Translations under genes and position numbers: made by a program | In this document: positions 12,018 to 16,346 of the stretch, piece after piece | Layout of the letters: each line of letters starts with the position of its first letter | Numbering within the stretch: the first letter of the stretch is position 1 | Notes under the pieces: generated by a model | Told to the model about the DNA's origin: nothing | What the model saw: the letters and a program-made list of their open reading frames with translations, nothing else | Databases searched by the model: none | From: a virus | Lineage: Duplodnaviria; Caudoviricetes | Length of the DNA stretch: 38,445 nt | Direction: 5' to 3' (one strand) | IMG/VR virus record: IMGVR_UViG_3300029258_000472 | Location: 1 to 38,445 of that record

Positions 12018-12066
12018 TGTGTTGTACATGAAGTGTAGTAATGTCTACAATCAGTGTACACCAACA
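12018..12066. promoter_or_regulatory. Divergent promoters within an imperfect palindrome (operator)
   Basis: Plus strand TTGTAC(12022)-N18-TACAAT. Minus strand TTGTAG-N18-TACAAC. Dyad TGTACA..TGTAG-N6-CTACA..TGTACA. Confidence 0.6.
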
Positions 12067-12223: not shown

Positions 12224-12384
12224 GCGATCTGATCCGCATTAACGAAACGATCCGGGCCTGGAACCTGGATCGCCTCAACCCTTGGTCGGATCAGTACACG
12301 ACCGACCGTGAAACACAAGCCAACGCGCTGATGATGGCGCGGTTGGCGGAAAAACGACTGGTGGAACTTCGGAGACAACTGTAA
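12211..12384 (+). CDS. Small hypothetical protein, 57 aa (not in ORF track)
   Basis: MAPVSDLIRINETIRAWNLDRLNPWSDQYTTDRETQANALMMARLAEKRLVELRRQL. GGAG RBS, and TAATG coupling to the RAMP-like gene. Confidence 0.7.
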   Translation: MAPVSDLIRINETIRAWNLDRLNPWSDQYTTDRETQANALMMARLAEKRLVELRRQL

Positions 12385-12968
12385 TGCAATCAATTACCTG
12401 CACGTTCTCGGGTATCAGCCCGATTCTGCTCAACAATCCGCAAACGGTTGATCCTTTCAACCGTTACGCCAAGGCGATGAAAACCATCACCGCTAAGCGC
12501 AAAAAGTCGGATGATGACTTGCTGGAACTGCGCCGCCTAGAAGTCGAGGCCAAGTGTTATTTTGATGAGCGCATCGGTATCTATGTTCCGTCAACGTGGG
12601 TTGTTGCCGCCATCGGCAGCGTATCCTGGACCAAGGGCAAGGTGAAGAGGGCGGATATCCGGTCGTCGGTGTTTCCGACTGCGGCTAAGTTGCCGCTGCA
12701 CTTTGCCGGACGGGAAAAGATCAAGGCGCTGTCAGATGTCAGCGGCAACCCGGAATTTCAGCGCGTGTTGCTGCTGAAACAGGGTCAAGTCAAAGTCGCC
12801 AAAGCCGCGCCGATCTTCCATGACTGGCAGTTCTCGGTTGAACTGGAATTTGACCACACCGTTCTGAACGAGCGGGAACTGACCAGTCTCATCGAGCACG
12901 CCAGCCGTTACGGCGGATTCGGTGATTTCAGACCCACCTACGGTGCCTGCGAGGTGTCGTTCGGGTAG
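12384..12968 (+). CDS. Stand-alone RAMP/Cas7-like RNA-binding protein
   Basis: N-terminal strand 'ITCTFSGISPILLN', 'IYVPSTWV', 'PIFHDWQFSVELEFD', and a C-terminal Gly-rich loop 'YGGFGDFRPTYGACEV'. This is the RAMP/RRM motif order. No cas genes or CRISPR array nearby. Confidence 0.75.
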   Translation: MQSITCTFSGISPILLNNPQTVDPFNRYAKAMKTITAKRKKSDDDLLELRRLEVEAKCYFDERIGIYVPSTWVVAAIGSVSWTKGKVKRADIRSSVFPTAAKLPLHFAGREKIKALSDVSGNPEFQRVLLLKQGQVKVAKAAPIFHDWQFSVELEFDHTVLNERELTSLIEHASRYGGFGDFRPTYGACEVSFG

Positions 12969-12969
12969 C

Positions 12970-13502
12970 GCAAGGCATAGCCATACAACGCACGGCAGGA
13001 CATAGCAGCGCACAGCATTGCAGTGTATGGCAGCGCAACGTAAGGCAGTGCAACGAATTGCATCGCAAGGCATGGCAATGCATCGCAATGCGCCGGAAAC
13101 GGCCGGTAGCGCCTTGGCAACAGGGCGCTATCGGGCGACCTTCGGGGAGTTAAGCGCATTGCACCACATCGCACAGCAAGGCACGGCAAGGCAGTGCAGC
13201 GTAGCGCATCGCGCCGCATCGCACCGTACTGCAAAGCAGAGCAGTTCTCGGCAGATCACTGCAATGCAGGGCACAGCAGTGTAAGGCAACGCGCCGGAAA
13301 CGGCCTCAAACATCTTGCTTGCAGGGTGTTTGGGGGCGACCTTCGGGGAGTCAATGGCAATGCAAGGTATAGCAAGGCACAGCAAGGCTGCGCAGCGCAC
13401 GGCAGCGCAGTGCAAAGCAGTGCAGGGCACCGCAAGGCATTGCAGCGCAAAGCACCGCCGCCAGTCCTGGCCATCAGCACATTGGCGACAGTGTGTTGGT
13501 GG
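12970..13502 (+). ncRNA. Putative guide-RNA array: three GCA-NN pentamer tracts with structured linkers
   Basis: Tracts at 12970-13089 (24 units), 13156-13290 (27) and 13357-13456 (20). 56 of 71 units start with exact GCA. Linkers at 13090-13150 and 13291-13351; terminal hairpin at 13471-13502. Confidence 0.8.
13090..13351 (+). repeat. Two 61-nt linker repeats, GCGCCGGAAACGGCC-[28-nt hairpin]-GGGCGACCTTCGGGGAGT
   Basis: Identical 15-nt and 18-nt flanks starting at 13090/13291 and 13133/13334 (201-nt spacing). Confidence 0.92.
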
Positions 13503-13537
13503 GCATCGATTGGATGTCAATTAGAGGTTTTCGACCA

Positions 13538-14005
13538 ATGCGAGAACACATGAAAGATGGGTTTTACGAACTGCAACAGGCCGGGCTTACCGAGTACGGC
13601 GCAGAGATTCACCGTGGCGCGTTCCTGAGCATGTTCGGTATTGAGCGGGTCACGGACAATGATCTGGCGATGATGCAGCCAAAAGAGATCCGCCAAGCAT
13701 TGCAGGGCGAAGCCCTCGCCGAGCTGGCAGCGGCAGGCTATGTGCGAGATCAACTGCTGAAAGAGGGCAAGTATTTTGCCAGAACGCAGGACGTGTACCG
13801 TGTGGCGCTGCCCAGCGAGAACGCGGAGCACGCTGGCCGATACTTGGCGCAGGCGAACCGGAAGCAGCGCAAAGCACGGCTTTTGCTGGACTCGACGCCC
13901 AAGCAGGCCGAGCAAGTGACTGATAACACCGCCCGGCGGCTCGCCCGGCATCGGATGCAGCACGACCGGATGGCAGAACGGATTGGAGTACAGGCAGCAC
14001 AATGA
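13538..14005 (+). CDS. Hypothetical protein, candidate accessory factor of the RAMP/array locus
   Basis: ORF starts just after the array's terminal hairpin (ATG 13538 or 13550) and is ATGA-coupled to the next gene. Confidence 0.7.
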   Translation: MREHMKDGFYELQQAGLTEYGAEIHRGAFLSMFGIERVTDNDLAMMQPKEIRQALQGEALAELAAAGYVRDQLLKEGKYFARTQDVYRVALPSENAEHAGRYLAQANRKQRKARLLLDSTPKQAEQVTDNTARRLARHRMQHDRMAERIGVQAAQ

Positions 14006-14259
14006 ACCCAACAGAAATAGCCCACGACCTAGCAGAAAAAATCCGCCGCGACCGCAGATCCCGCAGTGCTCGCGTGTTGTGGTCAAAGCGCCTCAAGCGG
14101 TTTACGGTTCAGCGCCCAAACACAATAGAAGCCGACCGAGCGGACTTGGAGCCATGGCGAATGGTCGGCGTGTACAACCGCACCAGCAAAACGCTGGTGT
14201 GTGACATCGCCGAAGATGTCGAACACTTTATGAAAAACACACTGAGGACAACCGGATGA
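14002..14259 (+). CDS. Hypothetical basic protein
   Basis: ATGA overlaps at both ends. Confidence 0.7.
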   Translation: MNPTEIAHDLAEKIRRDRRSRSARVLWSKRLKRFTVQRPNTIEADRADLEPWRMVGVYNRTSKTLVCDIAEDVEHFMKNTLRTTG

Positions 14260-15344
14260 TTACACTATCTCGTTCTGACTTACTGGCACCGCTTCGTTCG
14301 GTCGCCAGCGTGGTTGATCGGCGCGGCGCTATGCCTGTGCTTTCGACTGTTTTGATTCAAGTTACTGACGGCAAGCTCGCCCTTCGCGGGACTGACCTGG
14401 AAGTCGAAGTGACCGCCAGCCTGCCGCTCGACTTCGTTGGCGATTGGTCCACCTGCATCCCGGCGCGAAAGTTCCTGGACATCGTGAAGGCTGCACCGGA
14501 TGACGCGCAGATCGTCATCAAGCCGGACACTGACCGAGTGCAGGTCAAGATCGGGCGCGGTCGGTATGGTATGTCTGTGCTGGACTCCGACACCTTCCCG
14601 GCCATAGACACCGGAGATGCGCCGTATCAAGTCGCAGTGGCCGCCGACATACTGCAAGCCGTCATCGGTCACACGGCATACGCGATGGCGCAGAATGACG
14701 CACGGTACTATCTGAACGGTTTGCTGCTACAGCTCGATGGTCAAGCACTGCGAGCAGTAGGCACTGATGGAGGCCGTTTGGCGGTTTCTGAGCGTGACAT
14801 GAAGTCGGACCACACCATGAGCGCCATCATCCCACGCAAAGCCGTCACGGAGCTTGCAAAGATGCTGAGTGCCTATGACGGCGAGGTGCAAGTCCGGTGG
14901 TCAGATAATTTTGTCGAGTTCGTCATGGATCGCGTGTCGTTTCTGACCAAGGTCATTGAGGGTCGTTTCCCCGACTGGCAGCGGGTGATGCCAGATGCGC
15001 CGCACGAATGTCGCGCAAGTCGCCTGGAATTGAAGGGCGCACTCAGTCGCACGTCGATCTTGTCAAACGAAAAGTACAAGGGACTGAAAATCAACTTGAG
15101 CCGGGACCACATGGCACTGAGCGCCAGCAACCCGGATCAGGACATGGCAGAAGAATCAGTGGACGTGGCGTATACCGGCAATGATCTGGAACTCGGTATC
15201 AACGTCGCTTTCCTGCTCGACGCCGTGAACGCTATAGAATCGGAAGACATTCAAATCGGACTGACCGACGAAAACAGTGCGGTGTTGATCGTCGATCCCG
15301 ACTCGCAAGATGATCGGCACATCGTCATGCCGATGCGGGTATAG
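14256..15344 (+). CDS. dnaN: DNA polymerase III beta sliding clamp
   Basis: 362 aa with 'GTDLEVE', 'PARKFLDIVK', 'RYYLNG', 'VGTDGGRLA', 'IIPRKAV', 'IEGRFPDW' and C-terminal 'VMPMRV'. Confidence 0.96.
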   Translation: MITLSRSDLLAPLRSVASVVDRRGAMPVLSTVLIQVTDGKLALRGTDLEVEVTASLPLDFVGDWSTCIPARKFLDIVKAAPDDAQIVIKPDTDRVQVKIGRGRYGMSVLDSDTFPAIDTGDAPYQVAVAADILQAVIGHTAYAMAQNDARYYLNGLLLQLDGQALRAVGTDGGRLAVSERDMKSDHTMSAIIPRKAVTELAKMLSAYDGEVQVRWSDNFVEFVMDRVSFLTKVIEGRFPDWQRVMPDAPHECRASRLELKGALSRTSILSNEKYKGLKINLSRDHMALSASNPDQDMAEESVDVAYTGNDLELGINVAFLLDAVNAIESEDIQIGLTDENSAVLIVDPDSQDDRHIVMPMRV

Positions 15345-15348
15345 ACAC

Positions 15349-15540
15349 ATGGAATGCCGGCATGTCCGCAGCGTGGTGGTGGATAGCCGCACCCACAACG
15401 GGCACCGCTGGCGCAAACGCCGCTGCCACGATTGCAAGCAGGATTTCTACACGCTTGAAGTTCCGATCAGCGTACATCCCGGAGAGACTTGGGATGAGCG
15501 CATTAGGAGAACACATGATTACAGCAAAGATCATTGCTGA
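15349..15540 (+). CDS. NrdR N-terminal-like Zn-ribbon protein
   Basis: 'C.H..S.VVDSR....WRKRRCHDCKQDFYTLE'. No ATP-cone domain. Confidence 0.7.
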   Translation: MECRHVRSVVVDSRTHNGHRWRKRRCHDCKQDFYTLEVPISVHPGETWDERIRRTHDYSKDHC

Positions 15541-16346
15541 CAGCATCAGCCCATCCGGTGTCAGGCTGACCACGCTACAGCTCCGATACCCGAGATTCAT
15601 TCATTCGGAGTTCATGACCCATCGACAGTTCAGCCGGAATGCTTCAAGTTCCCGAGCGATCCCGGTGTCGAAGATGATTGAGCAAGTGCGAACCGAACCC
15701 GCCGAGCCGATCCATTGGGGCCGTAACCAGCCAGGGATGCAAGCAGATGAAGAGACTCACCATATTGGCATAGCGCAAAACTGCTGGAAATTGGCTGCTA
15801 ATGACGCTGCGCATTACGCCGAGATCCTTGCCGAAAATGCGCGAGTGCATAAGCAGGTGGCAAATAGGATTCTGGAGCCGTTCACCTTTATTTCAGTCGT
15901 GGTCACCGCTACCGATTGCCCTTCGGCTACACCCCGATGCACAGCCTGAAATTCAGGAACTGGCTCGATGCATGAAGGCTGCGATGGATGCCAGCGAGCC
16001 GAAGTTCTGCGACCCTGGAGACTGGCACCTTCCGTACATTACTGGCCCATATCCCGATGATGTAGAGCAGGCCAAACTGATCTCCGCCGCCCGCTGCGCC
16101 AGGGTGTCATACCTGAATCATGACCAATCCGAGCCAGACACCACAAAAGATCTGGCATTGGCCGAAAGGCTGGCTGAGTCGGGTCACTGGTCGCCTTTTG
16201 AGCATCAGGCGGCACCTTTGTCCTACCATCGCTGGCTTGGTGGCTCATGGGAAACAGGCGTCACTCATGTAGACCGAGATAGGAATCTATGGTCCGGCAA
16301 CCTTCGCGGCTGGGTCCAGCACCGATGCCTAAAAGCAGCAGAATAG
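15515..16346 (+). pseudogene. thyX: ThyX-like FAD-dependent thymidylate synthase, frameshifted at ~15917
   Basis: One frame gives 'YPRFIHSEFMTHRQFSRNASSSRAIP...HKQVANRILEPF...VVTATD'. The family sequence continues in the +1 frame as 'ALRLHPDAQPEIQELA...SAARCARVSY...HWSPFEH'. Confidence 0.8.

Follow-up and report, generated by a model that had tools for sequence, protein, structure and literature searches.

An array of five-nucleotide guide repeats, interrupted by structured linkers and carried by a phage genome, raises the question of how individual guide RNAs are released from one transcript. A sequence-only reading of this DNA had proposed that selection acts on the RNA structure of the linkers, and that they serve as processing, capping or loading handles. 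Our analysis shows that the linkers are genuine and conserved RNA elements belonging to a known system. We consider it likely that they are sites at which host RNase III would release the individual guides, and that they double as a self-capping switch.

The VIPR locus and its guide tracts

The window, by which we mean the whole 38,445-nt stretch analysed (the assembly being this single contig), is a 38.4-kb phage genome with genes for a terminase (matches all near 38-39%), a portal, a capsid, a clamp and ThyX. Along with phage structural genes, the genome carries a locus free of cas genes that consists of vipr, the array and an accessory gene (Table 1); no Cas family was found among the 43 window proteins scanned. 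Vipr (12384-12968) matches the SUSP1 Vipr of PDB 36pp with an E value of 2e-19 (phmmer) and an identity of 28%, and its structure model (pLDDT 94) matches the folds of Cas7, Csm3 and Cas6. The accessory gene has a homologue in 138 of the 150 loci that carry a close Vipr; its product is 35% identical to phiHSIC ORF20 and matches SUSP1 Vap1 only at E 0.065. With a Vipr homologue, pentamer guides and an accessory gene, the locus at 12384-14005 is a phage VIPR system. VIPR was described in bioRxiv 10.64898/2026.04.26.720920, with GGY-NN guides, a structured 3′ tail and related repeat consensuses; two VIPR types have hammerhead-interspersed arrays, and no processing nuclease is named. In the searchable text of the VIPR preprints, the cutting of VIPR arrays is unaddressed except for the hammerhead arrays, and no proposal of RNase III was found.

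Table 1. Features of the VIPR locus, in window positions; cuts are predicted and fall between the two bases given.
Feature	Position	Strand	Details
Sigma-70-like promoter candidate	12023..12051	+	Upstream of the operon; 9/12 consensus matches; about 0.9 expected by chance per region; weak
vipr gene	12384..12968	+	194 aa; RAMP-fold protein with G-rich loop
Guide tract 1	12970..13089	+	24 pentamers, 18 of them GCA-NN; starts one base past the vipr stop
Linker 1	13090..13155	+	GNRA hairpin 13092-13103; 14-bp stem 13103-13134; 3′ hairpin 13134-13151
Linker 1 distal box	13114-13115 with 13122-13123	+	
Linker 1, predicted cuts	13105/13106, 13133/13134	+	
Guide tract 2	13156..13290	+	27 pentamers, 20 of them GCA-NN; small internal hairpin 13241-13262
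Linker 2	13291..13356	+	GNRA hairpin 13293-13304; 14-bp stem 13304-13335; 3′ hairpin 13335-13352
Linker 2, predicted cuts	13306/13307, 13334/13335	+	
Guide tract 3	13357..13456	+	20 pentamers, 18 of them GCA-NN
Linker 3	13458..13520	+	Four-pair hairpin 13460-13471; 14-bp stem 13471-13502; 3′ hairpin 13502-13518
Linker 3, predicted cuts	13473/13474, 13501/13502	+	
Accessory (vap-like) gene	13550..14005	+	151 aa from the likely ATG; alternative starts 13538, 13493

Shortly downstream of the cassette and in the same orientation lies a full-length beta sliding clamp gene (14256-15344). Matches to ThyX-like thymidylate synthase fall on two ORFs (15362-15949 and 15801-16346) that overlap in different frames and represent a split gene, a frameshift or an intron. 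In marine contigs from three runs of a single study, 12356 is connected to 13998 through 20 other letters and the vipr-array-vap cassette is missing. Hence, close relatives of the phage either have or lack the cassette as a whole.

Across the three tracts, 56 of the 72 units counted (71 full, 1 partial) carry GCA, and the NN positions are variable. We took the residue-base contacts of Vipr from the accessible text of bioRxiv.720927 and compared 98 GCA loci with 17 GGY loci, duplicates included. The aspartate that binds G1 is kept in 98/98 GCA loci. The arginine that binds G2 is present in 17/17 GGY loci and falls outside the five commonest residues in the GCA loci, where the pocket residue M72/Y is replaced by W. 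This residue pattern fits GCA being read on the + strand, and would establish GCA-NN, not its reverse complement, as the strand on which the GCA-code clade works. TGH/NN is listed among non-canonical motifs in the accessible part of bioRxiv 10.64898/2026.10.21.760802; this motif could be the GCA clade read from the opposite strand.

Several relatives differ in their repeats. Three close Vipr relatives (L039, L042 and L097) have very long unbroken GCA tracts (18-39 units) without linkers. One locus with a distant Vipr (L060) has AGY-NN repeats, with N, Y and N at the H17, E71 and M72 positions, and another whose Vipr belongs to the GCA clade (L061) has a GGY-type tract downstream of its GCA-type array. 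Within tract 2 of the window, the small hairpin breaks the GCA motif twice, keeps the phase and has a folding z-score of -2.4; it might split the 27-unit tract, or it may be incidental. A search for guide targets by the 1-nt skip rule in the window and the fetched loci found none (best 17/20, not above what other skips gave), and a scan of a public collection with one seed of one tract gave 9 matches, none of them extending (6-14/32 outside the seed).

Folding and covariation of the linkers

The coordinates and sequences given for the linkers in the sequence-only reading are all correct, and the three long hairpins that it drew are real, with stems of 14 bp instead of the 12 bp that it gave for the first two. 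It had counted two complete linkers and taken the third hairpin merely to end the array. The third hairpin does close the guide array, but it belongs to a full linker with 5′ and 3′ hairpins that leads into the accessory gene; hence there are three linkers. Their stems are the sole uninterrupted hairpins of at least 14 bp in the 38,445-nt window, both strands included. The three stems share just 17-20 of 32 letters, and pairwise comparisons show 5, 5 and 3 two-sided changes. G·U pairs number 2, 3 and 3 in linkers 1-3, respectively, and folding gives z-scores of -5.1, -4.2 and -3.3 for the + strand versus -1.3, -0.7 and -1.2 for the - strand. A - strand reading of the array (as TGC-NN) was rejected in view of the G·U pairs, the + strand folding bias and the Vipr residues described above.

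The succession of GNRA hairpin, long hairpin and UUCG hairpin that had been drawn is not how the intact RNA is predicted to fold. Each linker is predicted instead to form one extended stem, which is 5-8 kcal/mol more stable than the three-hairpin form (-39.6 vs -31.3, -31.7 vs -26.7 and -33.4 vs -26.7 kcal/mol), and the small flanking hairpins have pair probabilities of only 0.006-0.076 in the precursor. In the precursor fold, the GNRA and UUCG regions of linkers 1 and 2 are paired with each other. Linker 3 writes both alternative folds in letters different from those of linkers 1 and 2, which argues that both folds have been selected.

For a survey of relatives, Vipr protein and alignment searches gave 170 loci, including duplicates and one locus identical to the window. 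From 72 loci with at least 39% Vipr identity, 143 distinct linkers were extracted; 8 without a callable 3′ hairpin were removed, leaving 135, and a further 25 that had no starting G or fewer than 7/10 pairs were set aside. The 110 linkers kept come from 56 loci and 48 Vipr clusters at 90%. The layout common to the 143 linkers consists of the last repeats of a tract, a long variable hairpin, a short hairpin starting with G, a few mostly A-rich bases and the next tract. The exact linker pattern of the window had 0 matches in viral contigs.

Covariation was assessed on an ungapped alignment of 20 tetraloop stems, namely the window's three plus one per cluster, chosen by stem length and loop size and not by sequence. 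In this alignment pairing holds in 93% of cells, and two-sided changes are seen at 13 of the 16 pairs. The covariation score, a check that the sequence-only reading had itself called for among homologues, is 0.76, as opposed to 0.19 for shuffled and 0.09-0.15 for slid alignments, and 0 of 500 shuffles reached it in a control that ignores relatedness. Together with the strand-asymmetric folding, this covariation among relatives bears out the proposal that selection acts on the structure of the + strand RNA. Three pairs are nearly fixed in the same 20 stems, which were not selected for the box described below (U·G 20/20, U-A 18/20 and A-U 17/20), and their neighbours covary freely.

In the DNA contigs of the three marine runs mentioned above, which carry close relatives of the phage, tracts are replaced or resized and the linkers persist. 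These contigs also show loop changes, a change from G·U to G-C at 13496, and, at two partial contig ends, a further stem sequence of apparently the same length and with the same box.

Conserved structure of this kind could in principle belong to a self-cleaving ribozyme, like the hammerheads between the guides of types I and V. Ribozyme-interspersed VIPR arrays exist (bioRxiv 10.64898/2026.04.26.720920), and linkers 1 and 2 contain GAAAC and GUY. Linker 3, however, has no GAAAC, and in the relatives it is the paired positions that hold the conserved letters, not a single-stranded core. The hammerhead core motif is CUGANGA, and it is absent from the linkers. Rfam gave no match at gathering level over the whole window, and the 10 weak matches up to E 10 at 12940-13560 include no ribozyme family. 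We therefore regard a ribozyme as very unlikely. The layouts of the hammerhead, hairpin, HDV, twister and pistol ribozymes were compared with the linkers by eye and rejected.

The RNase III-type signature and the predicted cuts

The stems were next compared with the rules for E. coli RNase III, which may differ from those of the phage's host. According to the accessible passages of PMC1540722, the optimal distal box is U-A/U·G, with the U·G pair stringent, and the substrate has an 11-bp helix, a GCAA loop and a 28-nt product. In its proximal box, G-C is found at pb1, and pb2 (pair 9:30 of a 34-nt RNA) must be A-U or U-A, G-C being inhibitory there; the rules further ask for A-U at pb3 and no G-C at pb4. 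The accessible text of PMC6212723, on in vivo E. coli sites, reports that G is preferred 11 nt upstream of the cut, and that G-C pairs lie between the two cuts. Across species the distal box is not conserved (PMC3867540). In our numbering pb2 is position -5 from the 3′ cut, and the box register of -11/-12 was taken from the PMC6212723 passage and the layout of the substrate.

All three window linkers have the U-A/U·G box, 10/10 pairs below it, A-U at pb2, a helix of exactly 11 bp from the predicted 5′ cut to the loop and a middle piece of 28 nt. Among the 21 sites with at least 8 pairs on both strands of the window, the three linkers are the sole sites with 10/10. In linkers 1-3, respectively, the proximal box has G-C, A-U and G·U at pb1, U-A, A-U and C-G at pb3, and G·U, C-G and U·G at pb4. 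C-G stands at -1, between the cuts, in all three. At +1, the pair just below the 3′ cut, C-G and not A/U is found again, as it is in 86% of the weighted linkers. This last feature is not what E. coli would prefer: A/U is favoured at that position in vivo (PMC6212723, accessible text), and at the symmetric position a G-C or C-G pair reduces catalysis 7- to 14-fold in vitro (PMC1540722, accessible passages). The C-G pair below the 3′ cut in all three window linkers and the C-G at pb4 of linker 2 are disfavoured in E. coli assays and, along with the C-G at pb3 of linker 3, count against the RNase III reading.

The signature extends to the relatives. With the start of the downstream hairpin as the anchor, AG occurs at -12/-11 in 67 of 135 linkers, as opposed to 20 of 135 at a one-base offset and 2-10 at nine other offsets. 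This anchoring rule, independent of the box, is the third version that we used; the first placed AG at the expected position in 55/140. The full UU/AG box with a 10-nt spacer is found in 60 of the 110 linkers and 31 of the 48 clusters, and spacers of 5-9 and 11-15 account for 0-4 of the 110 linkers each. Cluster-weighted frequencies are 0.71 for U·G at -11, 0.65 for U-A at -12 and 0.77 for G-C at -1; at position -5, A-U or U-A reaches 0.79 and G-C only 0.03. Paired fractions at -1 to -10 are inflated in the 110-linker set by the 7/10-pair filter. Over 106 GCA loci (duplicates included), sites with at least 9 pairs number 156 on the array strand, 132 of them near tracts, versus 19 on the other strand, an eightfold excess.

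The stem also continues for about 10 bp below the cut. At +3 to +10, 73% of positions are paired, compared with 31-46% when the strands are slid and 52.5±1.4% when they are swapped between clusters. This pairing explains the conserved last two repeats and the U-rich loops of the small hairpins. Another view is that the linkers are intrinsic terminators or promoters making separate transcripts. Many relatives do have U-rich bases shortly past the long hairpin, yet these bases form the loop of the small hairpin and are paired with the last repeats, which are A-rich. The window linkers have no U run, and nothing resembling a terminator or promoter was seen on the + strand within the array, so that we consider this explanation extremely unlikely.

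There are at least 12 bp above the predicted 3′ cut in 78 of the 110 linkers. The remaining 32 (14 clusters), which count against the RNase III reading, have fewer than 12 bp and are mostly without the box. This short-stem class (L017, L048, L144, L145, L151 and L168) has 8-11 bp above the cut, mostly lacks a distal box, and keeps both the lower stem and the downstream hairpin; it possibly belongs to hosts with a different RNase III preference.

In all three window linkers, the predicted 3′-arm cut falls at the first base of the small downstream hairpin, and the predicted 5′-arm cuts would spare the small upstream hairpin together with 2 nt. Successive linkers are spaced 201 and about 167 nt apart, and the guides are predicted to measure 173 and 139 nt after a double cut or 201 and 167 nt after a single cut. 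The earlier estimate of units of about 180-200 nt is therefore only roughly right. There is no RNase III-type site in front of tract 1, which may stay as the 3′ end of the vipr mRNA. A tract-1 arrangement similar to that of the window is seen in L039, L042 and L167.

Two further explanations deal with the same geometry. In the first, Vipr or the accessory protein would recognise the long hairpin and cut at its 3′ base. Cas6 cuts CRISPR repeat hairpins in just this manner. Vipr has a RAMP fold whose model matches Cas6 among others, cleavage at the 3′ base would give the same geometry, and the near-invariant C-G at +1 is unexplained by the E. coli RNase III rules. Against this, the positions contacted by RNase III are precisely those that hold the conserved pairs, the other pairs covarying, and SUSP1, with a Vipr of only 28% identity that reads another repeat, shows the signature too. 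The accessible text of bioRxiv.720927 also describes Vipr solely as an RNA-coating filament. Cutting by a protein of the locus is, in our judgement, quite unlikely.

In the second, the linkers would stay uncut and act as filament stops, nucleation handles or sites that RNase III only binds, with the array remaining one long RNA or being trimmed to the hairpins by general nucleases. In SUSP1, assembly begins at the 3′ tail, which forms a structured cap (bioRxiv.720927, accessible text), a G-C pair beside the scissile bond can permit binding without cleavage (PMC1540722, accessible passages), and the missing site upstream of tract 1 would agree with this view. It leaves unexplained, however, the fixed 10-nt distance from the box to an alternative hairpin that is mutually exclusive with the precursor, and we hold it to be unlikely. 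RNase III cleavage remains the reading that we prefer; the idea of processing handles is thereby supported and can be specified as putative host RNase III sites.

On this reading, the end of the upstream unit would pair with the start of the downstream unit in the uncut transcript, making the stem about 10 bp longer; the resulting helix is predicted to have about 24 bp and to be cut at its middle. RNase III would bind through the upper half and cut the 3′ arm 10 nt below the distal box. The 5′ arm is probably cut too, with a 2-nt offset, which would remove the 28-nt hairpin. After the cut the lower stem would fall apart and refold, and only then would the GNRA and UUCG hairpins form. A fully paired hairpin would stand at the head of the downstream RNA. 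The upstream RNA of the window phage would finish with a four-pair hairpin followed by 2 nt, and Vipr would afterwards coat the pentamers. Cutting at the third site would in addition release the accessory-gene mRNA, which is predicted to be headed by the 3′ hairpin of linker 3. Both end hairpins would likely protect the RNA ends, and the capping role proposed earlier fits the hairpins predicted on the cut products. The accessible text of the RNase E paper PMC11194081 does not address 5′-terminal hairpins. Not all relatives would switch in this way: the "product" hairpin already wins the precursor fold in 29 of the 110 linkers, and a 3′ capping hairpin is found in 9 of the 110, two of them from the window phage.

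Taken together, these results give a named enzyme and cut predictions at the nucleotide level. If they are true, a one-protein system matures its guides without Cas6 or tracrRNA, and VIPR would depend on a host enzyme. The linkers would also supply a compact self-capping cassette for multiplexed guide expression.

Comparison with SUSP1 and other guide and RNase III systems

SUSP1 carries a type II VIPR which, like the window phage, has a homologous Vipr, an adjoining accessory gene and pentamer-guide arrays in a phage. We found RNase III-type sites with 10/10 pairs 0-5 nt before each of its four GGY tracts and a 9/10 site after the first tract (within L175:1000-1160 and 2265-2583). The searchable text of bioRxiv.720920,.720927 and 2026.10.15.759431 makes no mention of RNase III-type stems of SUSP1. 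Cut-to-cut sizes are 105 nt for vrRNA1, 121 nt for vrRNA2 and 116 nt for vrRNA3, and four RNAs of about 100 nt are reported in SUSP1 (bioRxiv 10.64898/2026.04.26.720920); the predicted vrRNA2 and vrRNA3 pieces need trimming to reach about 100 nt. Such sites also occur at the loci of phage wV8, Medea1, phiHSIC and Vibrio phage 1.266.O. Among distant GGY loci just 3/15 have one, and thus the RNase III route is not universal.

The two systems differ in several respects. The repeat is GCA-NN in the window phage and GGY-NN in SUSP1, and the tracts have 20-27 units versus 9-16. Among the repeat-reading residues, H17 is replaced by N and M72 by W in the window Vipr, and R138 is lost. SUSP1 guides end in a 3′ pseudoknot tail, no counterpart of which is visible in the linkers, whereas the window phage guide is predicted to have its conserved structure at the 5′ end. 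Hence, the window locus has neither of the hallmarks of SUSP1-clade type II, the GGY-NN repeat and the pseudoknot 3′ tail.

A broader proposal is put forward tentatively, as a possibility that we judge somewhat short of even. The linkers of the GCA-code clade may be cleavage-triggered RNA switches, in which the stem to be cut would be built partly of one guide's last repeats and the next guide's leader, and in which the cut would yield a guide capped at a structured 5′ handle. A tracrRNA-free RNase III route of this kind may be general, SUSP1 included, and would be a candidate for RAMP guide maturation before Cas6. The conserved 5′ handle predicted for GCA-clade guides has a polarity opposite to that of SUSP1 guides. 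Class 1 CRISPR RNAs carry a 5′ handle as well, the same polarity as is proposed here.

Set against E. coli substrates, the window linkers resemble uR1.1, the T7-derived minimal substrate (PMC1540722, accessible passages), in their U-A/U·G box, 11-bp helix, A-U at pb2 and 28-nt product; the GCAA loop of that paper's substrate recurs in linker 1. With the in vivo sites of PMC6212723 (accessible text) they share G-C between the cuts. Unlike E. coli substrates, they have C-G just below the 3′ cut with a G·purine mismatch beside it, a lower stem predicted to arise from strands that refold into end caps, and products that would be guide RNAs and not mRNAs alone. Type II CRISPR with tracrRNA (cited in PMC12045711, accessible text) is likewise a case in which host RNase III matures a guide array, but the window duplex is intramolecular and therefore dispenses with a tracrRNA, and a class-1-like RAMP protein serves as the effector. 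Finally, the hammerhead-interspersed VIPR types I and V (bioRxiv 10.64898/2026.04.26.720920, fig. S19 legend) also place structured linkers between guides for processing; theirs have a ribozyme core, whereas those of the window phage do not.
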